From Chloroflexota bacterium (GTDB taxonomy: Bacteria; Chloroflexota; Dehalococcoidia; Lucifugimonadales; JACPCL1): a DNA stretch of 33,748 nucleotides. The notes under the pieces were generated by a model. That model saw only the letters and a program-made list of their open reading frames with translations. It was not told where the DNA came from and searched no databases. Shown here one piece after another: positions 3,574-20,014 of the stretch. The translations under genes and the position numbers were made by a program. How positions within the stretch are numbered: the stretch's first letter is position 1; every line of letters starts with the position of its first letter. The stretch spans positions 1 through 33,748 of the forward strand of contig JACQUI010000102.1 of NCBI GenBank assembly GCA_016210395.1. Reading direction: 5' to 3'.

Positions 3574-3663
3574 TGCTCTATGCTGATGCTGCCGCTAGGA
3601 AGGTGCGCTTCCGGCCTGACCCTGTAAGGCGCCGCCGTACCGGCGGCGATGTTCTCGCAGCGT

Positions 3664-4080
3664 TCAGTTGTTCATGATGACGGGTATGCCCGCCGCCCGC
3701 GCCTTCTCGGCCGCCTCCTCGTTCACAACGCCGTCCTGCATCCAGACAAACTTCGCCTTCACTTCGATGGCTTCGTCCACCACTGGCGCAACCAACTCCG
3801 ACCGCCGGAAAATGTCCACCATGTCTATGGGCACCGGCACCGACTTCAGGTCCGGGTAGCTCTTCTCTCCCAGCACCTCAGTCACCTGAGGGTTCACCGG
3901 AATGATTTTGTAGCCGACACTCTGCAGGTATTTTGCGACGCGATGGCTGTCCCGGTCTGCGTTAGGGGACAGGCCAACCACGGCAATCACCTTGCTTTGC
4001 GTGAGCTGCTGCTCCACAAGGTCCACAGGCGCACCTCCTTCTTGCGAAACGTCCAGGGCGGCAACCCTGTTGGCCGCCAT
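3664..4080 (-). CDS. CoA-binding domain protein (YccU/YneT-like)
   Basis: ORF 3664..4206 trimmed to the ATG at 4078-4080 (MAANRV...). KVIAVVGLSPN..R.SH.VAKYLQ..GY.IIPVNP and DMVDIFR are typical of the small CoA_binding_2 family. Confidence 0.8.
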   Translation of the reverse strand: MAANRVAALDVSQEGGAPVDLVEQQLTQSKVIAVVGLSPNADRDSHRVAKYLQSVGYKIIPVNPQVTEVLGEKSYPDLKSVPVPIDMVDIFRRSELVAPVVDEAIEVKAKFVWMQDGVVNEEAAEKARAAGIPVIMNN

Positions 4081-4164
4081 TCTACTCCCATGCAACCAAA
4101 GCCACAATATGTCTTTGCGTGCAATAGGAGGGCCGAAGGTAATGGGAGCGCGACGCCCTCGCAC

Positions 4165-4193
4165 TTGTACGGGTTTCGTCACACTGGTACAAT
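4165..4193 (+). promoter_or_regulatory. Putative sigma70-type promoter for the DUF1445/DUF4392 pair
   Basis: TTGTAC (4165-4170), 17-nt spacer, TACAAT (4188-4193), with TG at 4185-4186 (extended -10). It lies about 26 nt upstream of the ATG at 4219. Confidence 0.4.
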
Positions 4194-4218
4194 CGTCCGA
4201 AGGCAAAGGAGCTTCCTT

Positions 4219-5013
4219 ATGGCAATCAACGCGCTCCCCTCCAGCTCATCGGAGCTACGCGCCCTCATCCGCCAGGGCAAGTGGACCGGGCCCACGGTCG
4301 CGCTTGCTCCAGGGCGCGTCCAGGCCAACCTGGTGGTGTTGCCCAAGGAGCAGGCCTTCGACTTCCTCCTGTTTTGCCAGCGCAACCCCAAGCCGTGCCC
4401 CCTTGTCGAGGTGCTGGACCCCGGCAACCCGGAGGCGTCACAGACAGCTCCACGCTCGGACGTCCGCACCGACCTTCCACGCTACCGCATCTACCGGGAT
4501 GGCCGCATGTCGGCTGAGGTGGAGGACATCCGCGAGGAGTGGAGGCCGGACCTGGTCACCTTCCTCCTGGGGTGCAGCTTCTCGTTCGAGGCAGCTCTGC
4601 AGCACGCAGGCGTGCCCCTCCGCCACGTGGAAGAGGGGAAAAACGTCTCCATGTACATCACCGCCATCCAGACGACGCCTGCCGGCCAGTTCTCCGGGCC
4701 GATGGTCGTCTCCATGCGCCCCATCCCCAGGGACAAGGTCGTCCGCGCCGTGCAGGTGACCTCCCGCTTCCCCAGCGTGCACGGCGCGCCGGTGCACATC
4801 GGCAACCCCCAGGACATCGGCATCCGCGACCTCTCGCGCCCGGACTTCGGCGACGCCGTGGAGGTCAGGGATGGCGAGGTCCCCGTCTTCTGGGCCTGCG
4901 GCGTGACGCCCCAGGCGCTGGCCGTGAAGTCGCGCCCGCCCCTAATGATCACGCACGCACCCGGGCACATGTTCATCACCGACCTCCGGGACGAAGACCT
5001 GGCCGTCTTGTAA
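4219..5013 (+). CDS. DUF1445 / UPF0317 putative hydro-lyase (D-glutamate cyclase-like catalytic domain)
   Basis: The 454-aa ORF is trimmed to the ATG at 4219, preceded by AAAGGAG. Family-typical N-terminus: R..IR.G.WTGPT...APG.VQANLVVLP...A.DF..FCQRNPKPCPL.EV. The upstream part of the ORF is antisense to the CoA-binding gene. Confidence 0.85.
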   Translation: MAINALPSSSSELRALIRQGKWTGPTVALAPGRVQANLVVLPKEQAFDFLLFCQRNPKPCPLVEVLDPGNPEASQTAPRSDVRTDLPRYRIYRDGRMSAEVEDIREEWRPDLVTFLLGCSFSFEAALQHAGVPLRHVEEGKNVSMYITAIQTTPAGQFSGPMVVSMRPIPRDKVVRAVQVTSRFPSVHGAPVHIGNPQDIGIRDLSRPDFGDAVEVRDGEVPVFWACGVTPQALAVKSRPPLMITHAPGHMFITDLRDEDLAVL

Positions 5014-5076: not shown

Positions 5077-5934
5077 GTGTCACAAGTTGAAGACATCATA
5101 CTCGACCGCGACAAACGGGGTGTCTCCCACCTCCGTGGCTATCTGTCGCCGGACTTTTGCCACGATGCCGCCCGATTCCTCCTGGAGCATGCGCCGCGCG
5201 CCCTCATCTGCACCGGCTTCTACATCAAGCGGGCCAAAGCCCCGGAAACCGATGGCCCTCCGGGGGCCTACTTCATCGGCAAGGCCCTTCAGGCCCTTGG
5301 GTTTCAGGTAACATACGTCTCAGACCGGCATTCCATCGGACTGTTTCGGGGCTTGGCGCGGCCGCATGAGCTTATCGAGTTCCCAATCGCGGACGTGGCT
5401 ACGAGCCGACGGTTCGCGCAGGACGTGCTGTCCAGGTTGACGCCCACGGTGGTCATCTCCATCGAACGGTGCAGCCTGACCGCGCGGGGGCGCTACCTGA
5501 ACATGCTGGGCGTGGACATCACGCCCTTCAACGCCCGGCTGGACTATCTCGTCGAAGGCCAGCCGGCCACCATCGGCATCGGCGACGGCGGCAACGAGAT
5601 CGGCATGGGCAACCTGGCAGCCCAGATCCCCAGCGTCGCCACACTGCCCAAAGAGCCGGCGGCAACAACGGTCTCGAAGCTGGTGCTGGCCAGCGTCTCC
5701 AACTGGGGCGGGTACGGCCTCATCACCGCGCTATCGCTGCAGGCGCGCCGCAATCTCCTTCCTTCCGTGGAGACGGAGACGGACCTCATCCGGTTCATGG
5801 TGTCCCGTGGCGCAGTGGACGGCATCATGACGCAAAGGGTCCACGCCGTGGACGGTTTCCTGCTGGAGGAAAACCAGAAGACCCTGGAGCGGCTCCACGC
5901 GTTGCTGTCTGCCCAAGGTCTGCGCACCGGGTAG
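5077..5934 (+). CDS. DUF4392 domain protein (second domain of animal D-glutamate cyclase)
   Basis: 285-aa ORF with a GTG start, 63 nt after the DUF1445 gene. The GIGDGGNEIGMGN motif and overall size fit DUF4392 as I remember the family. Confidence 0.7.
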   Translation: MSQVEDIILDRDKRGVSHLRGYLSPDFCHDAARFLLEHAPRALICTGFYIKRAKAPETDGPPGAYFIGKALQALGFQVTYVSDRHSIGLFRGLARPHELIEFPIADVATSRRFAQDVLSRLTPTVVISIERCSLTARGRYLNMLGVDITPFNARLDYLVEGQPATIGIGDGGNEIGMGNLAAQIPSVATLPKEPAATTVSKLVLASVSNWGGYGLITALSLQARRNLLPSVETETDLIRFMVSRGAVDGIMTQRVHAVDGFLLEENQKTLERLHALLSAQGLRTG

Positions 5935-6122: not shown

Positions 6123-7388
6123 ATGCGCCAAATGCTGTTGACCAGAAGTCGGACCCCTGTTGTAGTAGGCGGACTTATCTTGCTCTTGGGACTCGTGATC
6201 GCCATCGTCGGCGCTGTCAGCGCCGACAACGCCACCCATCCCTTTGGAGAGAGCGCTCCGAACACGGACTTCGGCTGGCAGCCGATGGTGGCCGGTGATC
6301 TGGTAGGTGTTGACGTCCTGTTGGATCCCGTGATGACCGGCGCCAAAGCGGTCTACTCGATTGAGGTGTTCCTGAAGAACTCCACGACCTTGACGGACAG
6401 CATCGTCAGCGGAACGCCAGCCGCATTCGTTCGGACGACTGCCTCCGGTGGTAGCTTGCCGACCGGCCAGGTCATCAATATCCGGTTCAGTTTCCTCAAC
6501 GACGTGCCCGCCTCCGTCCGGCAGAACGCCATCACCCCGCCGGCAGTGGCCGGCATCCACCTCATGGGCCGCGACAACGCAGGCAACCCTGTCCTCGTAG
6601 GCAGGTCGGTCAACCCCGCGCTAAAGCCCATTCCTGCGCCCACAGCGACTCCCGTTCCGCCGGCGGAGCCCACGCCCACGCCTGTCACAACGGTAGTCGT
6701 GCCTGAGTCCCAGGTCACGGCCGTGGCCGCGCCCGCGGGCGGCGCTTCCAAGATCGTGCAGCCCAATGCGGCGGCCACACTCAGCGCGCCCGACGGAAGC
6801 GTGACGGTGAACCTACCCCCCACATCCAGCAGCAAGACGTTCCAGGTAACGTACGCGCCGCTCACCACGGGCGTTCCCGCCGCTTCTCCCAAGACCCAGG
6901 TCCTGCGCGCCTTCGCGCTGACCACCTACGGCACTGATGGCGCCAAAACCGAGGTCACGCTCCTCCAGTCCGTAACCATCAGCGCCAAGTACACCAGCGC
7001 CGATAGCCAGGCGGCCCCGGACAAGAACCCGGCCAACCTGCGCATCCTTAGCTACGACGACACCACCAAGGTGTGGAGCCTCCTCAACACCACCGTGGAC
7101 ATCGCCGGCCAGATGCTTACGGCCAAGGTCAGCCACCTGAGCACCTTTGCCGTGGGCAGCGCGGAGCCGCCCCCACAGACGGTTGAGCAACTGCAAACCC
7201 CGACTCCAACAGCAACACCCGTGGCAACGGCAACGCCCACAAGAACCCCGGCGCCTGCTCCGACGTCTCCACCCACCGGCGACTTCGCGCCTAGCTCCGG
7301 CCTGGTCCTGGCCGTGATGCTGGCGGGCCTGCTCATGGTCCTGGGCGGTGCAACCTATATCACCCAGAGCCGCCGGTCGCGGGCATAG
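6123..7388 (+). CDS. Type-I membrane surface protein with Pro/Thr-rich linkers (function unknown)
   Basis: N-terminal signal/anchor VVVGGLILLLGLVIAIVGAVSA-DN. Two PT-rich linkers (about 6628-6695 and 7198-7280). C-terminal TM GLVLAVMLAGLLMVLGGATYI followed by basic QSRRSRA. GGAGG at 6118-6122 is better spaced for the second ATG at 6132, so the true start may be 6132. Confidence 0.8.
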   Translation: MRQMLLTRSRTPVVVGGLILLLGLVIAIVGAVSADNATHPFGESAPNTDFGWQPMVAGDLVGVDVLLDPVMTGAKAVYSIEVFLKNSTTLTDSIVSGTPAAFVRTTASGGSLPTGQVINIRFSFLNDVPASVRQNAITPPAVAGIHLMGRDNAGNPVLVGRSVNPALKPIPAPTATPVPPAEPTPTPVTTVVVPESQVTAVAAPAGGASKIVQPNAAATLSAPDGSVTVNLPPTSSSKTFQVTYAPLTTGVPAASPKTQVLRAFALTTYGTDGAKTEVTLLQSVTISAKYTSADSQAAPDKNPANLRILSYDDTTKVWSLLNTTVDIAGQMLTAKVSHLSTFAVGSAEPPPQTVEQLQTPTPTATPVATATPTRTPAPAPTSPPTGDFAPSSGLVLAVMLAGLLMVLGGATYITQSRRSRA

Positions 7389-7417
7389 CTTCCCCGGCTC
7401 GTACACATGCGTGAACG

Positions 7418-7460
7418 AGAGGCCTGGCGAGACTCATCGAGAGTCCTGCGCCAGGCCTCT
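7418..7460 (+). terminator. Hairpin terminator after the 421-aa surface protein gene
   Basis: AGAGGCCTGGCG (7418-7429) pairs with CGCCAGGCCTCT (7449-7460). An inner GACTC/GAGTC pairing is also present. It is followed by TTCATG. Confidence 0.55.
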
Positions 7461-7766
7461 TTCATGTCCGCGACTACAAGCAAGCCTCATACCGCCACGG
7501 GTGGTGGCACCATCGCCATCCAGTGGGGCCGGCAGCAACCTGTGACCCCACCTTTTCCATCACCCTCTGCTCAAAGCCAGGGTCCGAAGCGTCGCAGCCT
7601 GCTTTTGTAGCAAGGGAACCATACATACGTAAGAAACCTTACCTTCTGACCGGGAAGAGAAGACCTGATTTGCAGGCTAGGGTCTCATGATTTTTGGCGT
7701 AGTTTCACCAAAGGTCAGACGAGTGTCAGTAGACATGTTATGGCCTCATAATCCTTCCTCAAAACC

Positions 7767-7809
7767 TTGCTTTCCCTTTGGCACAAGAGTATAGTAACCG
7801 CTTGGTTAC
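7767..7809 (+). promoter_or_regulatory. Putative sigma70-type promoter plus overlapping palindrome upstream of the giant gene
   Basis: TTGCTT (7767-7772), exact 17-nt spacer, TATAGT (7790-7795). The palindrome GTAACC-GCTT-GGTTAC (7794-7809) overlaps the -10 and predicted start site. GAGGT lies 5 nt before the ATG at 7898. Confidence 0.5.
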
Positions 7810-7897
7810 CATAATAAAGTGCGCTCCTTGCAGCCAGGCCTCCAAGGAGTCGTTGTGTTTGAGCGCGAAATAGCCACGCACCAATCCAGAGGTAGGC

Positions 7898-10800
7898 ATG
7901 TTGACTACGAGTAAACTGCTCGACAGCCGCAAGATCGGTATCGTCTTCCTCCTCACTATTGCCATCACTTCTGCCCTTGTATTCTTGGCGACCACCGCCC
8001 AGGGTTCATCGGCAACCCTTCAAACCAATAAGACCACGCCTTACCTCGTTGGGGAGACGGTCGGTTCCACTGCTACGTACTACATTGACGCGTCCATTGA
8101 TACCATCTATCGAATGCAGCTTGGCGTAGCTCCTACTTCAGGCGTCCCTGACAACCAGTCCTTCGTTGTGGACTTGCGATTCGATAAAGGCGGGCCATTC
8201 GACCTGACCAACCGCCTTCCCGCGGACATGCAGGCCAGGGGATCATCGTTGCTGCTCAGCGTCGGCTACGACGATGCCGTGGGCGCCGGCTACGGCTATG
8301 CCTATGGCTACACCGGCTTCGGCTACAGCTACGGCTACGCCTACTGCTGTGGGTATGGCTACGGCTATGGCTATGGCGGGTCAACGGGAGGCGCAGCAAG
8401 GATCATTCTGAACCTTTCTTGGGACCCGCCACGCATCAATGCCAAGGATGGCACGTACCTCGCCACCTTCACTGTCGGGTCTGACAAGGGTGAGTTCACT
8501 GCCGCTGACGAATTCTCCTTCGTCAAGGTGTCGGCTCTCGATGTCACCATCACCGACCCTGCTGACGATTCCGTCCTGACCTCCACGGCCCCCATCTCCA
8601 TCAAGGGCGGCATTAACGACCCTACCGGCGTGGTCAACGTGTCGCTGGCGCGGCCGGACGGCTCCCTCGTGACCGTGCCCGCAACCATGGGCAACTTGTC
8701 GTGGAGCAGCCCACTGCTGTCGCTCGGTGAAGGCCGCAATATCCTGACCGCCGACGCCACCAACGGCTACACCCCTGCCCTCACTGACACCGCCACGTCC
8801 ACCGTTATCGTGGACAAGACACGCCCCAAGCTGAAGATACTGAATCCCGGCGGCGTGACCAACAACGCCAGCATTGATATTGACATCAGCTTCATCGAGG
8901 CCAACCCTGCGCAGCTTATCCTGAAGCGCAACGGCGCTGTCATCCACAGCCTCGGCCGCGCCCCGTTGGAAACTTCCGGCGGGGTCCTTAAGCTGCCGGT
9001 TCCCCTAGAAGACGGGCCCAACCTCATCTGCGCCGAGATGACCGACCGCGCCGGGTTTACGCCCGACCCCTCGGACCCGTTTAACGTTTTGTGCGCCGCC
9101 CCTATCACGCTTGACCAGACCCCCAGGCCGCCCACCAACGTCGTGGCCACCCGCGGCAACAGCTCAGCGACGCTGACCTGGAGCGCCCTGGACCCCTTTG
9201 GCCAGCCCATTGACAACGGCAGCCCGCTGCTCTTCTACACCATCAAGGCGTTGAAGGTAAACCCGGCTGAACCCGGCGATGAGCCTCAGATTTCAGCCCC
9301 CGGCACTGCGCTCGAAGCGATTGTCGCGGGTCTAACAAACGGCACGACCTACAAGTTCAGGATCACCGCCACCAACGCCAAGGGCGCCAGCGATCCGGCA
9401 TTCTCCAACGTCATCACGCTTGGCACAATCCCCGGCACGCCCAGCCTCAGCGCGGCGCTGGTCTCACACAACAGCGCCGGTATCGTGTGGTCGCTGTCTG
9501 CCGACGGCGGTTTGCCCGTCACCTTCACCCTCTTCCGCGACGGCGCCGTCGTTCTGACAACCACGGCCACATCCTTCACGGATACCGGTCTGTCAAAAGC
9601 CACCACCTATGCCTATCGCGTTCGCGCAGCCAACGCTGTCGGGCCAAACCTGGTGGACAGCGATACCAAGTCTGTGACCACCCCCGACGTGCCCGCTGCC
9701 CCCGTCCTCAGCGGCATTGCCAAGGACAAGGCGGTGGACCTCACCTGGACGGCTTCGCCCGACCAGCCCTTCGCTCCCGTCTTCGGTTATGAAGTGCAGA
9801 TGAAGGCAGGTCCAGGCTCCTTCGTCACCATCGCATCCTTGGGGCGAGTAACCAGCCACACGGTCTTGGGGCTCACGAACGGTGTCACCTACTCTTTCCG
9901 CGTCCGCGCCCTGAACGTATGGGGCCCCGGGGCGTTCTCCAACGAAGTCCCCTTTACCCCCACGGGTCTGCCAGGCAAGCCAGGCAAGCCCGTGGCCACG
10001 CCGTTCGACTCCTCCGCCCTGGTGATCTGGACGCCGCCCCTGGACACCGGCGGCCTGCCCATTCTCACCTACACGGTTGACGGGTTCGAGGTAGGCGTCA
10101 TGGCCCTGTCCGCGCCCGTCGTAACGAAGATTGTGGACGGTTCGCTGACCAGCACCCTCGTCACTGGCCTGATCAATGGGAAGTCCTATGTGTTCACGGT
10201 GACCGCGAGGAACACCGTGGACTTCGGCCCCCCCTCTGACCCGTCAGACCCGGTAATGCCCTCCGGTGTGCCGGGCAAGCCAATCATCATGAGTGCGTTC
10301 CTCGTGTCGCACAACAGCGCCAGCATCGCCTGGACGCTGGCCAGCAACGGCGGGTTGCCCCTTGGAGAGGTCGTCTTCGACGTCTTCCGCGATGGCGTGA
10401 AGATCGCCACTACGCCGGAGAATACCTACACCGACGCCGGCCTCACAGTTTGTACGCTGTACTCTTACACCGTGCAGGCCAGGAATATCAACGGAGCGGG
10501 ACCGGTCAGCGACCCGAAGACCGTCAAGACGGCTTGCGCGCCCGACGCCCCCATCATCAGCGTGCTCGATGGGGACAAGCAGGCGCACGTGTCGTGGTTC
10601 CTGCCGCCGCCGCCTCCAGGCCCCTTCGAAGCGCCCACAGGCTATGAGCTGCAAATGCGCACGGGCGCCGGGCCTTTCGTCACCATCGCCATGCCGGCGG
10701 CAACGCAGACCGCCTACACCGTGAATGACCTGACCAACGGCGTGACGTATACGTTCCGCGTGCGCGCGATCAACGCTGCCGGCGCCGGCCCGTGGTCCGG

Positions 10801-13800
10801 CGAAGTCTCTGCCACGCCGTCTGCCTTTCCCGGCGCGCCCGGCAAGCCGGTGGCCAAGCGCGCCGGCCCGTTGGCCCTCTTGCTGTCCTGGACTGCTCCC
10901 CTGGACACCGGCGGGCTGCCCATCCTTGAGTACCGGCTGGACGGCTACGCCCTACCCTCATCCCTGACCAGCCTTGAGATGACCGCCGCCGCGCCGGACG
11001 TGGTGGTCTTCGTGGGCGGCGATAAGACCTCCGCCATAGTGGGCGGCCTCACCAACGGCACCCGCTACATCTTCACCGTCACGGCCCGCAACGCCCGTGG
11101 CTTCGGGGCGCCTTCCGAACCCTCCGACCCCGTGACTGTCGGCGGTCCTCCGGGCAAGCCCGTGATCACCGAGGTGTCCGCCACGCACAACAGCGTCCAC
11201 CTCAGGTGGATTGTGGACGATGGGGGCCTCCCTGTGTTCTTCAACGTCATCAGGGATGGCGCGATCGTCGCCACCACCACCGCGATGGCTTTCACAGACA
11301 CCGGCCTCGCGCCCAGCACTACATACAAGTACCGGGTTCGCGCCACCAACGAGGAGGGGTCCAGCGAGAGCGACGAAACCCCGGTCAAGGCGGCGCCGGG
11401 CCCCGACGCCCCAGATCTCAAAGCTTTCCCCTGGAACAAGGCCGTAGACCTCATTTGGGCAGGAGCGACGGGGTTCTCAGTCGTCGAGTTCGTGCTGGAG
11501 ATGAAGCTCCCCAGCGGGGGCTTCACCACCGTCGGCGTCTTTGGTCCAGGAGCGACGGCCACCACAGTCTCCGGCCTCACCAACGGCGTGCCCGTGACCT
11601 TCCGTGTCCTGGCCCGCTACGTCGGCGGGCTGGAGCTCTACTCCAGCGAGGTCACCGTTGTGCCCTTCGGCCCGCCAGGCAAGCCCGGTAAGCCAACGGC
11701 AACGCCCGTGGGCGCCGATGCCCTGGTGCAATGGATGCCCCCTGTAGACGACGGCGGTAGGCCTATTCTTGGCTACAGGGTTGACGCCTTTGAGGTCGGA
11801 GTCACGTCCCTCGCAACCTTCGTGTTCAACAGGGAAGTTGGACCAGTCACCAGTACCCTGATGTCACCCCTGACAAAGGGAAAGGAGTACTTCTTCGTCG
11901 TCACGGCGCGGAACGTAGCCGGGTACGGCGAACCCTCCAACCCGTCGGACGACTTCATGTCCGCTACCGAGCCGGGCCAGCCAATCCTCAGCCTCGGGAC
12001 TGTGACCCACAATAGCGTCCAGCTCGACTGGACGCTGGCCGACAACGGCGGCCTGTCGCCCGTGGTCTTTGAGGTCTACCGGAACGGCGCGATGGTGTTG
12101 ACCACCACCGCCTTGGCGATCACGGACACGGGTCTGTCCCCCAGCACCAAGTACACGTACCGGGTGCGCGCTTTCAACGCGCGCGGCTTTGGCAAATTCA
12201 GCAACGAAGTATCCGCAACGACCTCCGGCAGCCCCTCTGCGCCCTCAATTAACGTGACCGCCAAGGACAAGAGCGTCGACGTCTCGTGGATACCGGGGCC
12301 CGGCGCGCCCTTTGCCAAGTTCGAGTTGCAGATGGGTCTTGCAGGCGGGCCGCTTCTCCCGCTTGTGGAGCTTCCTCCAACCACTACCTTCTTTGCCGCC
12401 ACCGGCTTGACCAACGGCGTCACCTACTGCTTCCGCGTGCGCGCCCACAACGCAGCCGGCCCCGGGGAATGGTCCCCCACCGCCTGCGCCATGCCCAACG
12501 GCCTGCCAGGCGCGCCCGGCAAGCCGTCTGCCAAGGCCTTCGAGCAATCTGCACTCGTGAGCTGGACGCCGCCGCTGGACAAGGGCGGATTGGATATCAC
12601 CCGCTACACCATCAGGACGTACGAAGTGCCCGGCGTCATGGTGACCACTTCTTCGGTCCTTATCAGCACTATCATTGTTGACGGCAAGCTCACCAGCGCC
12701 CTGGTCAGCGGCCTGGTCAACGGCAAGAGCTACAACTTCTCCGTTGCGGCCTCCAACTCCAACGGCGAAGGCCCTGAGTCGCTTCCATCCGACGCCGTCA
12801 AGCCCGGCTCTCCTCCCACGCCGCCCAGCGCGCCTAACTTCGTCAAGGCCACGCCAGGCAACAAGATGGCCAAGCTGTCATGGCAGAAGCCGGTATCCGA
12901 TGGAGGCAGCGAGCTGGTCTCCTACAAGATTTACGCCAAGATAGGCGCGTCTGCGCCTGTGCTGGTGCTCACCGTAGCTGGTACCCAGCAAAGCGCAGAG
13001 GTTACGGGCCTGACCAATGGGGTGACCTACCGGTTCCTGGTCACCGCCACCAACGCCGCCGGACTTGAAGGCCCGGCAGGCGTCTCCAACGACGTGACGC
13101 CTGCCGGCACGCCCACCGCGCCGCTGAACGTCACGGCTGTTGCAGGCAAGGCATCGGCCGTTGCGTCGTGGGATAAGCCCCTCTCCGATGGCGGCAGCTC
13201 CATCACCAAATACATCGTGACATCTTCTCCAGGCGGGAAGACTGCCGAGTGGTCCGCGGGCGATCTGAAGGCAACAGTGACCGGCCTGACCAACGGCGTG
13301 TCTTACACCTTCACTGTACGCGCGTTCAACGCCATTGGCCCAGGCCCGGCGTCCGCGCCGTCCAACCCCGTGACGCCTTCCGCCACCGCGCCCGCAACGC
13401 CGGACGTAACGCTGATGACACCCTCACCTACCAACGCCGCCAGCGCGACGTTGCGGATTAAGACGGGAATCGCTAATGTCGCAAAAGTCATCATCTCCGG
13501 CGGCCTGAGCGAGGTCGTTACCACTACGCCCCCATTCACGCCAGGGGAGGCGTTTGAGATCGCTGTCCCGCTCAAGCCCAACACGGGCAACACGCTGGAA
13601 GTGCGCGCCGCCAACAGCGATGGCGTCGTCTCCGAGCCGGCGTTTGTCGTGGTCATCCAAGACAGCATCAAGCCGCTCTTGGGCGAAGGCAACGTCTCCA
13701 CGCCGCCGTCGCCCACCAAGCTCGGCGAGACGGTCTTGACCGTGACCGGCGTCGAGGTAAACGCCACTATTGAAGTGGCGCGTGGCGGCGTTGTCCTCGC

Positions 13801-16800
13801 CTCCACCGTCGTCACGATCCCCGGCAAAGTGGAGACCTTCAAGATTGCGCTCACGCCCAACGCCACAAACACACTGGAAGTGACTGCCACCGACCTCGCC
13901 GGCAACACATCCAACAAGATTACACGCGTGGTCGTCCATGACAACATCGCGCCTGCCAAGCCAACCATCAACACGGTGAACGGGCAGCTTCCGGGCAGCG
14001 CCACGCCCACCAACAAGACCTCCATCATCGTTAATGTGACGGCGGAGAACGGTTCGCTGGTGATGATCACCGGCGGCAAGACCCCCGCCTTCAAGAGCGC
14101 GTCCACCGTTGACATCACCGTGGAGCTGAAGCTCAACCAGGACAACCTTCTGTCCATCGTCGCAACCGACGCCGCAGGCAACGCGTCCGTGGCCGCTACC
14201 GTGACGGTGAAGCAGGACGGCGTTGCGCCCAGCGTCTCCGTGGACCCCATACCCGCCTACACCACCAGCACTGCGCTGACGCTGAAGGTGAAGACCGAGG
14301 CCGGCGCGACGATCATCGCCTCCATTCTCGGCAACGGCATGACCTCTACCGTTGCCACAGGCGGCACGGATGACGTGCGCCTCACGCTGTTGTCCAACAA
14401 CCTCAACGTCATCACCGTCGTGGCCGTGGACGCCGCCGCCAATACCTCCACGCCTGCCGAGCTGAAAATCACGCACGACAACGTGGCCCCCAGCCTGGTT
14501 GTCCTTGTGCCGGCCAATGAGACACAGACGGACACACCGCTGGCTGTGTTTACCCTCAGCATCTCTGCCGAAAAGGACGCCCTGGTTATCATCACCGGCG
14601 GGGCCGAGACCGTGACTGATAAGGGCACGGGCGTTGCGCGGTCCGTTGACGTGCCGCTGAACCCCGAGGTCCTGAACGTCCTCAAGATCAAGGCGGTTGA
14701 TGCTGCGGGCAACTCCCCACCCGAGGTGACAAGGAACATCAAGTCGTCGGCTGCGATTCCCGCGCCGCCAACGGTCTCTGTTCCTGTGTCGCCGGTCAAC
14801 GCAAACAAGGTCAAGTTCACCGTGACCAACATCCAGGGGACCAAGCTCACGGTGAAGCACACCAGCAGCGCTGCTTCCTCCACCGTCGAGTTCGTCACGT
14901 CCCCTGGGGACACCAAGACCCTGAACCTGGACCTGTCCCAGGACGACGTCAACGTCTTTGCCTTCAAGGTGAGCAGCGCCGCCGGCGTTGACTCCGCCGT
15001 TGTCACACGCTCGGTCACCGAAGACTCCACGCCGCCTGCTCAGCCGGCGCTGCGTGAGGCTGTCCCTGCCGAGACCAACCTCTCCTCCATCATCATCAAG
15101 CTGGAGGTGGAGTCCGGCGTCACCGTGACCGTCACGGAGCTCAAGTCCAAGAAGCTCGTCGGCTCCGGCAAGGCCTCCTCCCCCATAGACATCCTGGTGG
15201 AGCTCCAGCTCAACCAGGACAATACCCTGTCCATCCGCGCCATTGACGCTGCGGGCAACCAGTCGCCTGCCCTGGAGCTGGTGGTCCGCCAGGACGGCCA
15301 GGCCCCCGACAAGCCCAAGCTCATCGGCAAGGTCAAGTCCCCTACGACGGGCACGACCGCAACGCTGAAGCTTTCCGCCGAGACCAACTCCACAATAGAG
15401 GTCAGCGGCGGCAAGACGCTGAAGACCGCCACGGCCACCGGCGAAGCGCAGGATGTCGTCGTCGAGCTCAACACCGGCAACGGCGTGCTCAACACCCTGG
15501 TGGTCATCGCCAAGGACTCCTTGGGCAACGTGTCCGAGCCGCTCACCGTGCTGGTGATGCAGGACAACGTCAAGCCCGCCGCACCCATCGTCACATCGCC
15601 GCTGGCCCCTGGCGAAACGACGATGTCGGCCTTCATCACCCTGACGGTAGGCTATTCCGCCACCGATACTACCATCAAGACCATTCAAGTCGCCGGTCCC
15701 GCCGCGGACGCCAAGGAGCCCGCCACGGGCTCGGGCGAGCAGGCTGTGCGCGTCGTGCTCAAGGCCAACACCGACAACGTGCTGGTCGCCACCCTTGTAG
15801 ATGCCGCCGGCAATGTCTCCGAACCCACGACGGTCACCGTCAAGCGCGGTCCCGCCGAGACCAGCATCTTCGGCACGCTCAGGGGCACGCCCGAGAACCT
15901 CTCCGACGCTCAGGCTATCGCCACTACCGTCACGCCCGGTATCACCGTTGACCGCGTGGCTTCGGCCATTGACGCCGATTCCGGCGAGTTCGAGCTTGGC
16001 GGCCTTGACCCCACGGGCGAGTACACCGTGCAGGTCATCTACAAGGCCGGCGCAGGCACCGACACCCGCTACTACCAGGCCGGCGCGTCCGGCAACGCAG
16101 GCACGTCTCCCGCAAGCGCCACCAAGCTCAAGCCCGGCGCTGCAGGCATCAGCATTGAAATGTCGGTCCTGACCAAGCCCGTCATCACGGGCATCGGCGT
16201 TGCGCCCGCCGGCACGGACAACGACGTTGACCGCACGCTGACGATCACAGGAACGTCCCTCAGCGGCACGCAGGTCTGGCTGGTCGCCGACGCGAAGACC
16301 ATCGAGCTACCCATCACGCTAAAGACCGACACAGCCATCACGGCCACCATCCAGGCGAGTACCGCGCCTGGCGCATACAAGGTCCAGGTCAGGACCGGCG
16401 GCGGCCTCTCAGAACCTTCCAGCGACACGGTCGTCATCACCAAGGCGGCCGGGATTGACCCGCCGGTCATCAAGAACCTCAGGGATAGGTTCGTGCGCGC
16501 GGGCTTCCCGTCGGTCATCCGCGTGGAAGGAGCAAACCTTAAGGGCGATGGGGAGACCCTCGTGACGATCTTGCCCTTGGGCCTCGTAGTGAAGGCCACC
16601 GGCATTAACTCGGCCGGCACGCGCATGAATGTGCCCATCCTCGGCACGCTTCCTACAGGCGTGTACCAATTGCAGCCACGCAACAGCAAGGGTATCGGCC
16701 CTGCCAGCGAACCGTTCGTTGTGGCATCCTGTCTGCCGCGTGGGCTACGGATCGCCAGGTTCCCCGTCTGCTTCGGCGGCGGCGGGATTTTCAGCCTTGC

Positions 16801-19800
16801 GCTGGAAAGCACGCTGACCGACTCCGAGCTGATCCTGACCAACGCCGGCGAGGACACCGCCCCAGGCGCGCCCATCGCCAGCGTGCGCCTGCCCCAGGGC
16901 ACGTCCTTCACCAACGAGGCAGGCGAAGGCATTGAGACGCTGCTGCCGCCCAGGATGGTCACCCTCCCGGACGACCTCCAGGCCAAAGCGCCCGACGCCG
17001 TGGGCATCAAGCTGGGCCTGTCCGAAGGCCGCGTCCTGCTCTCCACTCCCGTGGTCTTGCAGGTGAAGATCACCCGCGCCGCCGCAAGCACGCCCACCCT
17101 CTTCCTGCAGCTCGACGAGACTACCTTCGAGGAGGCGGGCATCGAGGCCACCGTTGACGGCATCGCCTACAAGCCGGGCGGCATTGTGCTCAGCAAGACG
17201 CTGTTGCCGAATGGCCAGGCGGAGTTCCTTATGGCCGCCCTGCTCACCCACTTCTCCGAGTTCGTGGCCACGGACGAAGACCTGGTGCCGGATGTGCCGC
17301 CCAGCACGCCACAGAACGTCGAGGCCACGGCGGGCAACGCTCAGGCCACCATCACGTGGGAGGCCCCCGCCTCCGATGGCGGCGCGGACATCACGGGCTA
17401 CACCGCCACGTCCAACCCCGGCGGCAAGACCGCCACGGTGGGCGCGGGCACGTTCACGACGAACGTCACCGGCCTGACCAACGGCACGGACTACACCTTC
17501 AGCATCGTGGCGACCAACAGCGCCGGCGACAGCGCGCCCGCCACAACCGACGCGGTAACACCTGCCACCACGCCTGGGGCACCCACGGGCGTCACCGCCG
17601 GCATCGGCAACACGCTGTCCATCATCTCGTGGTCGGCCCCGGTGTCCAACGGCGGCTTCGCCATCACTGGCTTCAAGATCACCAACGACAAGAACGCCAC
17701 GACGCTCCTGGTCGGCAGCGGCAGCACCGCCGCCACATTCACCGGCCTGACTAACGGCGTGACCTACACCTTCACCGTCAGGGCCATCAACGCCCTGGGC
17801 GACGGCGATACGGCCGCGTCCAACGCCGTCACGCCCGCCGCGCCGACGGCAAAGCCCGGCGCGCCCACAGGCGTGACGGCGGCTGTAAAGGGGCCCACCA
17901 GCCTGGAGGTGACGTGGACGCCTGGTCCCCAGGGCGGCAGCCCCATCAAGGGCTACATCATCACGTCCGATCCACCCAGCACGAACAGCCCGCTGTCCGT
18001 TGACGGCGACGCGACGTTGACCAGCGCCGTCGTGACCGGCCTGACGCCCGGCGCCACCTACACCTTCACCGTGCAGGCCGTCAACGACGTCGGCGCCAGC
18101 GACCCCTCGGCAGCTTCGACAGGCGTCAAGGTCCCCGGCGCAACCCCTGGCGCGCCCACGGGCGTCAGCGCCACGGCGGGCAACGGCCAGGCGACCGTCA
18201 ACTGGACTGCGCCGTCGCCGGGCGATTCGGCCATCACCAAGTACATCATCAGAGCCTCCAGCGGGGTCGAAAAAGAGACGCCCGCACCCGCCACGTCCTT
18301 CGTGTTCACCGGCCTGACCAACGGCGTGAGCTACACCTTCACCGTCAAGGCCGTCAACGACGCAGGCGCAGGCGCGGCCTCCGCCGCTTCCAATGCGGTC
18401 GTGCCGACGGCTGGCGGAGGCGGCGGCGGTGGTGGCGGCGGTGGCGGTGGCACAACGCTCACCGCTCCCGCTGCGCCGACCGGCGTAGCGGCCACGGCAG
18501 GCAATGCGCAGGCGGTCGTTACATGGACGCCCCCTGCCTCCGACGGCGGTTCGCCCATTGTCGGCTACACCATCGTGTCCGATCCCGGCAACATCACCGC
18601 AGTGGCAGGCGCAGGCGAGACGACAGCGATCGTTACGGGCCTGCAAAACGGCGTGACCTACACCTTCTGGGTGATTGCCACCAACTCCATCGGCAACAGC
18701 TTGCCTTCCGGCAAGTCCGGCGCCGTCATGCCCATCGCGCCTACGCTGCCGCCGGTGCTCCCCAACAACACGGGGTCCTCCAGCGCAACGCTCAACTTCG
18801 AGCCCACCGTCAGCCAGACGGCCACGGCCAAGACCACCTCCGGCGCGGCGGTGGAAATCGTTGCCGGCGGCCAGATTGACCTGGCCGTGAAACCCGACGG
18901 CAGCAACGTGCTGGTACTGCCCATCAAACTGGCTGCCGGCGCATCTCTCGACCAGTTCCGCGACGACGCCTCCGGCGTGTCTGTCCAGGGCAACGTTGTG
19001 CGGATTATCGTGAAGGACGCCCAGGGCCAGCCCAGCATCTACCTGGAAGCCAAAGTGAAGTCTGTCACCGGGACCGGCAATACTGCTGAGGTCCAGCTCC
19101 AGGACTTCCGCCTGAAGACCGCAGAGCAGCGCAAGGTGGTCAACGGCGACGTAGGCACGGCCTCCGTGACGTTTGACGCCGCCCTGGTTGACGTGGACAT
19201 CGCGCCCGATGCAACCATCACCGTCACGATTCAAAACGCGCCGGACGCCCCCGACAAGACCGCCTTCGACGCCGCAGCCGCTGCAGGCAACGCCAAGGTA
19301 ACCGCCTATGCCTATGCTGCAAAGGTCGAGAAGGTCAAGCTGGCCGACGAGACCGACATCGGCCAGGCCTTCGTCGAAATGAATGCCGGCAAGGGCTTCG
19401 TGGACAAGTACGGCCTGAGCAAGGTCAAGATCATGCGCAGGGCCGATGGCGGCGCGGTGAGCACCCTTGCCACTGAAGTCAAAGGCTCGGACGACGAGGG
19501 CAACGTGACCTTCCGCGCCACTTCGCCCAAGGGCCTCTCCGTCTTCGCCCTGGTGGTGCAGGAGACGCTGCCTCCGCCGCCCACGCCGACGCCCACGCCA
19601 GGGCCGACGGCTACTCCTACGCCGACGCCACCTCCGGCAACGGCCACGCCTACGCCGACGCCTGGTGTTGGCACGCCGACGCCAACCCGCACGCCGGCGC
19701 CCGGCACGGTCACGCCGACGCCGACGCCAACCGTGGTTGGGCCGCGAACGCCGACGCCGACGCCCACACCGACGCCTGGTGTTGCTACGGCTACGCCGAC

Positions 19801-19957
19801 AGCCAGCCCAACGCTCGTGCCGCCGACGCCCACAGCCGGGCCAGGCGTGCCCACCGGCGCAGGCGGGGCCACGATCATCATCATCGTGGTGATCATCGTC
19901 GCGCTGGCGGCAGTGGTCGGCTTCCTCATCTTCCGCCGCCGCACGGCTCAGGGATAG
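7898..19957 (+). CDS. Giant (4,019 aa) multi-domain cell-surface protein: FN3 / Ig-like / IPT-TIG arrays with a C-terminal membrane anchor
   Basis: Single uninterrupted 12,060-nt ORF. Signal/anchor KIGIVFLLTIAITSALVFLATTAQG. About 20 FN3-like modules (W..P..DGG..I..Y......LTNG..Y.F.V.A.N..G). About 11 Ig-like modules ending D.AGN.S......V..D...P. Two IPT/TIG-like modules, a PT-rich linker, TM IIIIVVIIVALAAVVGFLIF, and RRR. Confidence 0.93.
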   Translation: MLTTSKLLDSRKIGIVFLLTIAITSALVFLATTAQGSSATLQTNKTTPYLVGETVGSTATYYIDASIDTIYRMQLGVAPTSGVPDNQSFVVDLRFDKGGPFDLTNRLPADMQARGSSLLLSVGYDDAVGAGYGYAYGYTGFGYSYGYAYCCGYGYGYGYGGSTGGAARIILNLSWDPPRINAKDGTYLATFTVGSDKGEFTAADEFSFVKVSALDVTITDPADDSVLTSTAPISIKGGINDPTGVVNVSLARPDGSLVTVPATMGNLSWSSPLLSLGEGRNILTADATNGYTPALTDTATSTVIVDKTRPKLKILNPGGVTNNASIDIDISFIEANPAQLILKRNGAVIHSLGRAPLETSGGVLKLPVPLEDGPNLICAEMTDRAGFTPDPSDPFNVLCAAPITLDQTPRPPTNVVATRGNSSATLTWSALDPFGQPIDNGSPLLFYTIKALKVNPAEPGDEPQISAPGTALEAIVAGLTNGTTYKFRITATNAKGASDPAFSNVITLGTIPGTPSLSAALVSHNSAGIVWSLSADGGLPVTFTLFRDGAVVLTTTATSFTDTGLSKATTYAYRVRAANAVGPNLVDSDTKSVTTPDVPAAPVLSGIAKDKAVDLTWTASPDQPFAPVFGYEVQMKAGPGSFVTIASLGRVTSHTVLGLTNGVTYSFRVRALNVWGPGAFSNEVPFTPTGLPGKPGKPVATPFDSSALVIWTPPLDTGGLPILTYTVDGFEVGVMALSAPVVTKIVDGSLTSTLVTGLINGKSYVFTVTARNTVDFGPPSDPSDPVMPSGVPGKPIIMSAFLVSHNSASIAWTLASNGGLPLGEVVFDVFRDGVKIATTPENTYTDAGLTVCTLYSYTVQARNINGAGPVSDPKTVKTACAPDAPIISVLDGDKQAHVSWFLPPPPPGPFEAPTGYELQMRTGAGPFVTIAMPAATQTAYTVNDLTNGVTYTFRVRAINAAGAGPWSGEVSATPSAFPGAPGKPVAKRAGPLALLLSWTAPLDTGGLPILEYRLDGYALPSSLTSLEMTAAAPDVVVFVGGDKTSAIVGGLTNGTRYIFTVTARNARGFGAPSEPSDPVTVGGPPGKPVITEVSATHNSVHLRWIVDDGGLPVFFNVIRDGAIVATTTAMAFTDTGLAPSTTYKYRVRATNEEGSSESDETPVKAAPGPDAPDLKAFPWNKAVDLIWAGATGFSVVEFVLEMKLPSGGFTTVGVFGPGATATTVSGLTNGVPVTFRVLARYVGGLELYSSEVTVVPFGPPGKPGKPTATPVGADALVQWMPPVDDGGRPILGYRVDAFEVGVTSLATFVFNREVGPVTSTLMSPLTKGKEYFFVVTARNVAGYGEPSNPSDDFMSATEPGQPILSLGTVTHNSVQLDWTLADNGGLSPVVFEVYRNGAMVLTTTALAITDTGLSPSTKYTYRVRAFNARGFGKFSNEVSATTSGSPSAPSINVTAKDKSVDVSWIPGPGAPFAKFELQMGLAGGPLLPLVELPPTTTFFAATGLTNGVTYCFRVRAHNAAGPGEWSPTACAMPNGLPGAPGKPSAKAFEQSALVSWTPPLDKGGLDITRYTIRTYEVPGVMVTTSSVLISTIIVDGKLTSALVSGLVNGKSYNFSVAASNSNGEGPESLPSDAVKPGSPPTPPSAPNFVKATPGNKMAKLSWQKPVSDGGSELVSYKIYAKIGASAPVLVLTVAGTQQSAEVTGLTNGVTYRFLVTATNAAGLEGPAGVSNDVTPAGTPTAPLNVTAVAGKASAVASWDKPLSDGGSSITKYIVTSSPGGKTAEWSAGDLKATVTGLTNGVSYTFTVRAFNAIGPGPASAPSNPVTPSATAPATPDVTLMTPSPTNAASATLRIKTGIANVAKVIISGGLSEVVTTTPPFTPGEAFEIAVPLKPNTGNTLEVRAANSDGVVSEPAFVVVIQDSIKPLLGEGNVSTPPSPTKLGETVLTVTGVEVNATIEVARGGVVLASTVVTIPGKVETFKIALTPNATNTLEVTATDLAGNTSNKITRVVVHDNIAPAKPTINTVNGQLPGSATPTNKTSIIVNVTAENGSLVMITGGKTPAFKSASTVDITVELKLNQDNLLSIVATDAAGNASVAATVTVKQDGVAPSVSVDPIPAYTTSTALTLKVKTEAGATIIASILGNGMTSTVATGGTDDVRLTLLSNNLNVITVVAVDAAANTSTPAELKITHDNVAPSLVVLVPANETQTDTPLAVFTLSISAEKDALVIITGGAETVTDKGTGVARSVDVPLNPEVLNVLKIKAVDAAGNSPPEVTRNIKSSAAIPAPPTVSVPVSPVNANKVKFTVTNIQGTKLTVKHTSSAASSTVEFVTSPGDTKTLNLDLSQDDVNVFAFKVSSAAGVDSAVVTRSVTEDSTPPAQPALREAVPAETNLSSIIIKLEVESGVTVTVTELKSKKLVGSGKASSPIDILVELQLNQDNTLSIRAIDAAGNQSPALELVVRQDGQAPDKPKLIGKVKSPTTGTTATLKLSAETNSTIEVSGGKTLKTATATGEAQDVVVELNTGNGVLNTLVVIAKDSLGNVSEPLTVLVMQDNVKPAAPIVTSPLAPGETTMSAFITLTVGYSATDTTIKTIQVAGPAADAKEPATGSGEQAVRVVLKANTDNVLVATLVDAAGNVSEPTTVTVKRGPAETSIFGTLRGTPENLSDAQAIATTVTPGITVDRVASAIDADSGEFELGGLDPTGEYTVQVIYKAGAGTDTRYYQAGASGNAGTSPASATKLKPGAAGISIEMSVLTKPVITGIGVAPAGTDNDVDRTLTITGTSLSGTQVWLVADAKTIELPITLKTDTAITATIQASTAPGAYKVQVRTGGGLSEPSSDTVVITKAAGIDPPVIKNLRDRFVRAGFPSVIRVEGANLKGDGETLVTILPLGLVVKATGINSAGTRMNVPILGTLPTGVYQLQPRNSKGIGPASEPFVVASCLPRGLRIARFPVCFGGGGIFSLALESTLTDSELILTNAGEDTAPGAPIASVRLPQGTSFTNEAGEGIETLLPPRMVTLPDDLQAKAPDAVGIKLGLSEGRVLLSTPVVLQVKITRAAASTPTLFLQLDETTFEEAGIEATVDGIAYKPGGIVLSKTLLPNGQAEFLMAALLTHFSEFVATDEDLVPDVPPSTPQNVEATAGNAQATITWEAPASDGGADITGYTATSNPGGKTATVGAGTFTTNVTGLTNGTDYTFSIVATNSAGDSAPATTDAVTPATTPGAPTGVTAGIGNTLSIISWSAPVSNGGFAITGFKITNDKNATTLLVGSGSTAATFTGLTNGVTYTFTVRAINALGDGDTAASNAVTPAAPTAKPGAPTGVTAAVKGPTSLEVTWTPGPQGGSPIKGYIITSDPPSTNSPLSVDGDATLTSAVVTGLTPGATYTFTVQAVNDVGASDPSAASTGVKVPGATPGAPTGVSATAGNGQATVNWTAPSPGDSAITKYIIRASSGVEKETPAPATSFVFTGLTNGVSYTFTVKAVNDAGAGAASAASNAVVPTAGGGGGGGGGGGGGTTLTAPAAPTGVAATAGNAQAVVTWTPPASDGGSPIVGYTIVSDPGNITAVAGAGETTAIVTGLQNGVTYTFWVIATNSIGNSLPSGKSGAVMPIAPTLPPVLPNNTGSSSATLNFEPTVSQTATAKTTSGAAVEIVAGGQIDLAVKPDGSNVLVLPIKLAAGASLDQFRDDASGVSVQGNVVRIIVKDAQGQPSIYLEAKVKSVTGTGNTAEVQLQDFRLKTAEQRKVVNGDVGTASVTFDAALVDVDIAPDATITVTIQNAPDAPDKTAFDAAAAAGNAKVTAYAYAAKVEKVKLADETDIGQAFVEMNAGKGFVDKYGLSKVKIMRRADGGAVSTLATEVKGSDDEGNVTFRATSPKGLSVFALVVQETLPPPPTPTPTPGPTATPTPTPPPATATPTPTPGVGTPTPTRTPAPGTVTPTPTPTVVGPRTPTPTPTPTPGVATATPTASPTLVPPTPTAGPGVPTGAGGATIIIIVVIIVALAAVVGFLIFRRRTAQG
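8282..8380 (+). other. Gly/Tyr-rich low-complexity insert with vicinal Cys, inside the N-terminal domain of the giant protein
   Basis: Codons 8282-8380 read GAGYGYAYGYTGFGYSYGYAYCCGYGYGYGYGG. Confidence 0.9.
9421..12810 (+). repeat. Four copies of a three-FN3 super-repeat (about 275-293 aa each) within the giant gene
   Basis: Units start near 9421, 10261, 11141 and 11965. Each unit has type a (VSHNS..W.L...GGLP..F.V.RDG......TDTGL), type b (KDK.VD..W......F.GYE.QM..G.G.F) and type c (PG.PGKP......AL..WTPPLD.GGL.I..Y..D..E). DNA identity between units is only moderate. Confidence 0.85.
13390..15852 (+). repeat. Array of nine roughly 90-aa Ig-like modules within the giant gene
   Basis: Each module ends with a variant of TL.V.A.D.AGN.S.P....V..D...P. 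Examples: TLEVTATDLAGNTSNKITRVVVHDNIAP, LLSIVATDAAGNASVAATVTVKQDGVAP, TLSIRAIDAAGNQSPALELVVRQDGQAP. Period is about 270 nt. Confidence 0.8.
17296..18735 (+). repeat. Five canonical FN3 modules, with a Gly13 tract (18413-18451) between the fourth and fifth
   Basis: Repeated PGAPTGV.A..GN..A.V.W..P...G...I..Y.I........LTNGV.YTFTV.A.N. Thirteen consecutive GGC/GGT/GGA codons at 18413-18451. Confidence 0.85.
19568..19957 (+). other. Pro/Thr-rich linker (19568-19866), TM helix (19868-19933) and basic tail of the giant protein
   Basis: LPPPPTPTPTPGPTATPTPTPPPATATPTPTPGVGTPTPTRTPAPG... followed by ATIIIIVVIIVALAAVVGFLIF RRRTAQG-stop. Confidence 0.9.
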
Positions 19958-19980: not shown

Positions 19981-20014
19981 GAAGGGGGCGGGCAGCTAAG
20001 CTGCCCGCCCCTTC
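19981..20014 (+). terminator. Hairpin terminator after the giant gene
   Basis: GAAGGGGGCGGGCAGC-TAA-GCTGCCCGCCCCTTC, a 15-bp stem with a one-base bulge, 24 nt after the stop. No clear T-tract follows. Confidence 0.55.

Follow-up and report, generated by a model that had tools for sequence, protein, structure and literature searches.

The 33,748-nucleotide (nt) stretch of DNA analyzed here (the window; positions 1 to 33,748 of contig JACQUI010000102.1, Chloroflexota bacterium assembly GCA_016210395.1) carries a gene for a protein of 4,019 amino acids (aa), which we call the giant. Judging from its sequence, the giant is probably a Sec-exported, type-I (tail-anchored) surface fiber, most likely serving adhesion or envelope spacing in an uncultured Chloroflexota of groundwater type. 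It is a further example of a familiar kind of protein, from a rare and unstudied groundwater Chloroflexota family. Two of its parts are new: an orphan head carrying a Gly/Tyr-rich loop, and a conserved, confidently modeled mid domain without a match in the databases searched (Pfam, PDB, and BFVD).

Module map and topology of the giant protein

The gene is a single open reading frame (ORF) at positions 7898-19957 (12,060 nt, forward strand, as are all other window features given below) that starts with ATG and contains no internal stop codon. The protein has a mass of 408 kDa and an isoelectric point of about 5, both computed from the sequence. The G+C content at the third codon position (GC3) is 0.77-0.90 in each 1.5-kb slice of the ORF, compared to 0.47-0.59 at codon position 2. 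This even contrast indicates that the coding signal is uniform along the whole ORF, and domains recognizable in its frame span most of its length.

Hydropathy analysis found exactly two hydrophobic segments, one spanning aa ~12-34 and the other aa ~3982-4015. The first belongs to an N-terminal signal peptide or signal anchor (aa 1-36, 7898-8005) with a basic n-region, a hydrophobic core, and the residues AQG at a putative cleavage site. The second forms a C-terminal transmembrane (TM) helix (aa ~3991-4012) and is followed by a predicted cytoplasmic tail, RRRTAQG (helix and tail, 19868-19954). In front of the helix lies a 97-residue Pro/Thr linker (aa 3889-3985, 19562-19852) with 36 Pro and 32 Thr residues (70% Pro + Thr).

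Between the signal and the linker, the protein is largely a string of beta-sandwich modules. A lineage-specific head domain without database match (aa 37-215, 8006-8542), split by a Gly/Tyr-rich loop, is followed by two immunoglobulin-like (Ig-like) modules matching Glucodextran_B/Big_7 (aa 216-415, 8543-9142). Next come 15 FN3 modules (aa 416-1825, 9143-13372), arranged as one module, four copies of a three-FN3 super-repeat with a period of about 281-287 aa (843-861 nt), and two more modules. Nine Big_6-like Ig modules (aa 1826-2650, 13373-15847) precede a small beta domain (aa 2651-2757, 15848-16168), two IPT/TIG modules (aa 2758-2944, 16169-16729), and the mid domain, which is all-beta, conserved, and ends in THFSEFV (aa 2945-3130, 16730-17287). 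We refer to the part that starts with the small beta domain and ends with the mid domain as the cassette. Five more FN3 modules (aa 3131-3612, 17288-18733), the last of them preceded by a run of 13 Gly (Gly13, 18408-18451), lead to a C-terminal domain of 275 aa ending in GLSVFAL (aa 3613-3888, 18734-19561).

The FN3 and Big_6-like blocks were mapped with Pfam and with a self-built profile. Pfam fn3 (PF00041) matched 17 stretches of the giant (E = 3e-199, 646 bits against a cut-off of 25), and the self-built profile returned 15 + 5 strong FN3 copies and nine Big_6-like copies. The TIG match is weaker, and in the giant alone it falls under the Pfam threshold (18.4 vs. 20.9 bits); this region aligns column for column with TIG-positive homologs such as P0012. 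The small beta domain, which is conserved in homologs P0002-P0008, had no Pfam match, and the pattern of its sequence suggests a transthyretin/CarboxypepD_reg-like fold. The C-terminal domain is 51% identical to aa 2935-3209 of P0002, and its single-sequence AlphaFold2 (AF2) model was of low confidence (pLDDT 39.5). No Pfam, NCBIfam, or PDB-sequence match was obtained for aa 1-215, 2945-3135, and 3610-3890.

The initial annotation of this DNA, which was made without database searches, had read the gene as an uninterrupted 12,060-nt ORF for an anchored fiber, with an export signal, a string of about 35 beta-sandwich modules, and a TM anchor. This reading stands well. The ORF is intact and coding throughout, topology and module map support the anchored fiber, and the map drawn from Pfam, the self-built profile, and the homolog alignment is nearly identical to the proposed layout, with about 34 modules, among them 20 FN3, nine Big_6-like, two Ig-like, and two TIG. 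The Gly13 run, the Pro/Thr linker of about 100 aa, and the RRR motif are all present. The proposed absence of catalytic, toxin, and secretion-partner domains was borne out as well: Pfam and NCBIfam scans of the whole protein and of its segments found no such family, and no RTX, SLH, cohesin/dockerin, carbohydrate-binding module (CBM), or glycoside-hydrolase family either.

Two local features are peculiar to the giant. The loop that splits the head (aa ~130-165, 8285-8392) reads GAGYGYAYGYTGFGYSYGYAYCCGYGYGYGYGG, a Gly/Tyr-rich sequence of low complexity with a vicinal Cys-Cys pair at its middle; its coding DNA is an imperfect in-frame repeat of hexamers (period 6, 14.7 copies, 71% match). The loop was found in none of 30 family representatives, and could vary in length by slippage or form an adhesive or cross-linking tip. 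At the start of its mid domain (aa 2945-2976, nt ~16730-16825), the giant has an insertion seen in no homolog of the cassette alignment, which includes two paired cysteines (Cys2945...Cys2958) and a GGGG run (CLPRGLRIARFPVCFGGGGIF...).

A rare family with exchangeable heads

An exhaustive phmmer search of 1.84 billion cluster representatives with aa 2640-3135 of the giant retrieved 29 representatives at E <= 1e-3, 10 of them at E <= 1e-10. The family around the giant is thus rare but real, and it is uncharacterized. Its closest members are P0002, a complete protein of 3,352 aa from groundwater metagenomes (ERZ909605, ERZ27253369, and JGI 3300001380), and P0003, a protein of 2,939 aa truncated at the end of its contig, from the metagenome-assembled genome (MAG) GCA_016210375.1 at NCBI. 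Both align colinearly with aa 416-3888 of the giant (35-52% identity), and in segment-wise BLASTP all segments of this region matched them in order (E 1e-10 to 1e-106). They share with the giant the module order from FN3 array to TM anchor, the C-terminal domain, the Gly-rich run (in P0002 also located before the last FN3), the Pro/Thr linker, and the basic tail behind the TM helix. The existence of uncharacterized homologs with the same module order means that the giant is not an orphan. The initial annotation had named no characterized homolog, and none was found in PDB-sequence and Pfam searches.

Searches based on word indexes gave a different picture. With the N-terminal 420 aa, the C-terminal domain, or the cassette profile as queries, they returned no family members. 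They missed even P0002, despite exact five-residue words in common with the query and contigs in public assemblies, and these negatives therefore carry little weight. We suspect that low-complexity words swamped the searches; negatives of this kind on repeat proteins rich in Thr, Ala, Gly, and Pro are untrustworthy. A scan of a genome collection with the cassette and a scan of JGI metagenomes with the head of the giant gave no match.

The heads differ between family members. BLASTP found no counterpart of aa 1-415 of the giant among the 30 family representatives, P0002 and P0003 included. The common cassette is combined with PKD-type heads in P0002 and P0003, with an SdrD_B-type head in P0005, with right-handed beta-helices in P0012 and P0013, and with the orphan head in the giant. 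P0005 keeps the stalk and cassette and ends in a different membrane-proximal domain, and in P0012 and P0013 the part made of two TIG modules and the mid domain stands behind huge beta-helix heads. The alignments thus show a family in which anchor and stalk are conserved and the heads are exchangeable. One member, P0008 (1,930 aa), appears circularly permuted relative to the giant (mid-domain end, FN3, Big_6-like, small beta, TIG, and an end out of character), an order that probably arose from tandem paralogs or reflects a frameshifted or miscalled gene.

The initial annotation had also proposed a synteny survey of the giant and the 421-aa protein gene upstream of it. Relatives were indeed found, but P0002 and P0003 stand in another gene context than this pair. 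At those of their loci (L020, L021, L022, L023, L026, and L027) where the flanking sequence is included, a NosD/beta-helix giant of ~2,800 aa lies directly upstream, and the next gene after P0002 encodes a Choice_anch_L/TSP_3/Big_1 giant of more than 3,300 aa. The flanks thus show a row of three giant genes that the window lacks, where the giant is flanked by the 421-aa protein gene and queF and does not lie directly downstream of a NosD/beta-helix giant. The neighboring giants at the P0002 and P0003 loci do not contain the cassette.

Directly downstream of P0005 is a 483-aa TMEM260_N-family gene (18311-19762 in L024 and 12422-13873 in L025). Animal TMEM260 is an O-mannosyltransferase acting on IPT/TIG domains (PMC10214176). 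By analogy, this gene is a hint that the TIG cassette or the Pro/Thr linkers may be O-mannosylated in the family. The window contains no TMEM260_N-family gene.

The mid domain deserves separate attention. From an alignment of 21 sequences (A2), AF2 produced a model with pLDDT 87.3 and pTM 0.83 that consists of about 13 strands and one short helix. A Foldseek search, as recommended in the initial annotation, returned nothing for this model at E <= 1e-3 in PDB or BFVD (best matches: E = 0.13 and TM-score about 0.2 in PDB; E = 9e-3 and TM-score 0.29 in BFVD), which leaves a confident model with no neighbor in either database. In addition, the profile of the domain and its individual members had no PDB-sequence match and no Pfam match above the gathering score.

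A distant relative of the mid domain is encoded next to the giant. The 421-aa protein gene (6123-7388) encodes a surface protein with a signal peptide, an orphan domain, a Pro/Thr linker, a second domain ending in HLSTFAV, a second Pro/Thr linker, and the tail PPTGDFAPSSG-TM-RRSRA. Homologs of its domain 2 occupy the membrane-proximal position in P0005 (E = 2e-9) and P0013 (E = 6e-8). When the 421-aa protein and the giant were compared directly by BLASTP, nothing significant emerged, and the relation is visible at the profile level only: hhalign aligned the giant mid domain to domain 2 with a probability of 92% (E = 5e-7). The two are thus distantly homologous, and the adjoining genes have a domain superfamily in common. 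Profile comparison of the giant C-terminal domain with the domain 2 family was not significant.

The 421-aa protein shares its PPx(1-2)GD...SG-TM-RR tail with P0005 and P0009. No NCBIfam sorting model recognizes this pattern, which may be a separate, undescribed sorting signal and is at this point a candidate.

One could go further and propose that the cassette, especially its ~160-aa all-beta mid domain ending in H-[FM]-S-x-[FY]-[VA], represents an undescribed fold and domain superfamily with a specific job in the envelope of monoderm Chloroflexota, e.g., wall attachment or fiber oligomerization, and that the orphan head with its Gly/Tyr-rich loop centered on Cys-Cys would be a new adhesive or cross-linking tip. 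We regard this proposal as speculative and rather improbable.

Proposed function, anchoring, and alternative explanations

The features described above can be combined into a probable mode of action. The N-terminal signal would carry the chain across the cytoplasmic membrane through Sec, and the C-terminal helix would stop transfer and hold the protein in the membrane with its RRR tail in the cytoplasm. To span the wall zone, the chain would use its 97-residue Pro/Thr linker, which is probably O-glycosylated. Beyond the linker, about 34 tandem beta-sandwich modules would build a semi-rigid stalk of roughly 120-150 nm, as estimated from the textbook value of 3.5-4.5 nm per module, with the lineage-specific head and its Gly/Tyr-rich loop displayed at the far end. 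Most likely, such a fiber would attach the cell to particles, polymers, or neighboring cells, or would space the envelope, and would not be catalytic. An adhesin or spacer is favored because a variable head sits on a conserved stalk, the isoelectric point is acidic, and enzymatic domains are lacking. That the head is swapped between family members fits its being the part that binds a ligand or surface.

This proposal agrees with what is reported for similar genes. Giant genes of more than 5 kb occur frequently in Chloroflexota, and their products are often surface proteins (PMC10608941); adhesion has been widely proposed for giant bacterial proteins (bioRxiv 10.1101/2023.11.21.568195).

Several observations, however, weigh against it. 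The head has no recognizable binding fold in Pfam, NCBIfam, and PDB-sequence searches. The hydrophobic core of the signal is long (about 23 aa) and might remain in the membrane as a second anchor. The genes around that of the giant have housekeeping functions, and no glycosylation, secretion, or regulatory partner for the giant was found in the window. Finally, synteny with the contigs of the nearest relatives among MAGs, two groundwater Chloroflexi (L001 and L002), is limited to the gene of a thiamine pyrophosphate (TPP) enzyme, with none at the site of the giant.

Four known systems invite comparison, which here draws on general knowledge. Repeat adhesins of Gram-positive, monoderm bacteria (staphylococcal SasG/Aap and Ebh, streptococcal antigen I/II-type fibrils), which the giant resembles in design and function, likewise combine an N-terminal Sec signal, a distal head, a beta-rich rod, and a Pro-rich wall segment near the C-terminus. 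They are LPXTG substrates or built of G5-E or FIVAR-GA repeats, whereas the giant has no LPXTG and consists of FN3, Big_6, and TIG modules; its TM helix is most likely retained. Gram-negative adhesins of the RTX type exported by type I secretion systems (T1SS), such as LapA, SiiE, and MpIBP, are of similar size and, as in the giant, have Ig-like extenders and a ligand-binding region at one end. In contrast to the giant, they have no Sec signal and carry C-terminal RTX repeats, a T1SS signal, and an N-terminal plug for outer-membrane retention. Membership in this group was rejected, there being no HemolysinCabind or RTX match and both an N-terminal signal and a C-terminal TM helix. Archaeal S-layer anchors, exemplified by the S-layer glycoprotein of Haloferax volcanii, have a Thr-rich O-glycosylated stalk, a hydrophobic segment, and basic residues, to which the tail of the giant is alike; they also have a PGF motif and are processed by archaeosortase A, whereas the giant lacks PGF and is very different in size and repeats. 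Titin, too, has FN3/Ig super-repeats with a higher-order periodicity like that of the giant, where a block of three FN3 types is repeated four times. As titin is eukaryotic, intracellular, and kinase-associated, this likeness is architectural only.

The archaeal comparison leads to an alternative that we consider rather unlikely, namely that the giant is a structural envelope component (an S-layer-like lattice, a sheath, or a cell-cell connector) whose modules self-associate laterally. The Thr/Pro-rich stalk, TM helix, and basic tail would suit it, as would the archaeal-looking tails (NW..GG-TM-RRR) of the distant family members P0011-P0016, the row of three giant surface-protein genes in which the homolog stands in relatives, and a mid domain without known fold that could be an oligomerization module. 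However, S-layer subunits are normally far smaller, highly expressed, and without 30 or more tandem FN3/Ig modules. Neither SLH nor another known S-layer domain was found in the giant, and membership among SLH-anchored S-layer proteins was rejected for want of an SLH match in Pfam or NCBIfam. Moreover, a head that differs between close homologs fits ligand binding better than lattice contacts.

The manner of anchoring raises a second alternative. The simplest reading of the C-terminus is a permanent stop-transfer TM helix; no known C-terminal sorting motif reaches its model threshold. Alternatively, a dedicated enzyme (sortase-like, exosortase-like, or other) would process the C-terminus for covalent attachment to wall or lipid, and we find this unlikely. 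The tail, …AGPGVPTGAGG-ATIIIIVVIIVALAAVVGFLIF-RRRTAQG, does have a tripartite look (G-V-P-T-G, a hydrophobic stretch, and RRR), and like an LPXTG substrate it has a hydrophobic segment and basic residues at the extreme C-terminus. The TIGR01167 LPXTG_anchor model scores 15.5 against a cut-off of 15.9, but its alignment starts at model position 5 and covers the TM and basic part only. The tail sequence, ...AGPGVPTGAGGATIIII..., contains no LPXTG pentapeptide (nor LAXTG or NPQTN), and LPXTG sortase-substrate membership was rejected. The weak GVDTG_CTERM match (14.6 bits vs. 29) is far under its cut-off, as are PEP_CTERM (8.5 vs. 16), Firmicu_CTERM (11.1 vs. 50), and PVV_CTERM (8.5 vs. 27), so that membership in these CTERM groups was rejected too; for PGF-CTERM, the giant has neither the motif nor a model match. 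The sorting-motif-like tail of the 421-aa protein, P0005, and P0009 speaks for a sorting enzyme, while in P0002, the closest full-length homolog, the TM helix is preceded by a Gly run only and a common motif is absent. No sortase, exosortase, or rhombosortase is encoded among the genes of the window.

Quite unlikely, in our view, is a cellulosome-like scaffold for polysaccharide or polymer capture or degradation, in which the stalk would position enzymes or bind an insoluble substrate. The best NCBIfam match of the giant is the FN3 region of exoglucanase CbhB, but its score of 222 bits, where the cut-off is 1950, comes from FN3 similarity alone. The Ig-like modules resemble domain B of glucodextranase, and pectate-lyase-like beta-helices (NosD/Beta_helix) occur as neighboring or fused heads in relatives. 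Against this, the giant contains no CBM, cohesin, dockerin, or glycoside-hydrolase domain, and no carbohydrate-active genes lie nearby in the window.

That the ORF is an assembly artifact (chimera or repeat collapse) is highly improbable: although exact look-up and genome and metagenome scans found no independent assembly of the exact gene, and the N-terminal 415 aa have no counterpart in homologs, the head has its own signal peptide, Shine-Dalgarno site, and upstream non-coding region, GC3 is uniform, and aa 416-3888 are colinear with separately assembled homologs. The internal repeats are old (25-60% aa identity between copies; longest DNA repeats <=128 nt at <=78% identity), which makes collapse or expansion during assembly unlikely. 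In addition, five independent metagenome contigs contain P0002 in identical form, showing that genes of such design are real and not chimeras. Exact-sequence look-ups in the public gene collection returned neither the giant nor the 421-aa protein nor QueF.

Expression signals, genomic setting, and meaning of the family

The surroundings of the gene are consistent with separate expression. The 510-nt gap upstream of the giant contains a hairpin (7417-7463, z = -5.7 vs. shuffles, without U-tract) directly after the 421-aa protein gene, and a perfect 14-bp GC hairpin (19983-20013, z = -3.5 vs. shuffles) sits between the giant and queF. Based on these two hairpins, separate (monocistronic) transcription of the giant is plausible. 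The second had been described as a terminator at 19981-20014; the strong GC hairpin is there, but it is followed by CCTGCG rather than by a T-run. GC hairpins without U-tract may be the usual form of terminator in this high-GC lineage. By contrast, the "near-consensus promoter" described at 7767-7795 was overstated. This promoter-like site (TTGCTT-17 nt-TATAGT) has a weak -35 (3/6) and a good -10 (5/6), 8/12 matches in total, and is suggestive only; a consensus promoter scan did not call it and returned three sites in the region, compared to 1.6 expected from shuffles. A Shine-Dalgarno-like sequence, AGAGGTAGG (7888-7896, with AGAGG at 7888-7892), ends 5 nt before the ATG in its AGAGG core.

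The neighboring genes in the window are metabolic (the TPP enzyme, MsrA, a D-glutamate cyclase pair, QueF, inositol monophosphatase, and 2-oxoacid:ferredoxin oxidoreductase) or regulatory (a histidine kinase and GntR- and LysR-type regulators), with no sortase, secretion system, or glycosyltransferase gene in their number. Identity of the TPP enzyme to its counterparts in the two groundwater MAGs mentioned above is 89% (L001) and 70% (L002). With G+C at about 64%, this identifies the host as an uncultured member of the Chloroflexota. The D-glutamate cyclase pair, which is unrelated to the giant, consists of adjacent genes for a D-glutamate cyclase domain (3649-5013) and a D-glutamate cyclase-like C-terminal (GLUCM-like) protein (5077-5934).

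The attachment of uncultured bacteria to minerals, polymers, and other cells depends largely on giant surface proteins built of repeats. Groundwater and sediments are rich in Chloroflexota, whose envelope proteins are, to our knowledge, almost unstudied. The view of giant adhesin function is left unchanged by this study, and nothing points to a new mechanism. The mid domain will be useful for annotation and for picking structural targets. Together, the giant and its homologs define a small family in which a conserved anchor and stalk carry exchangeable heads.

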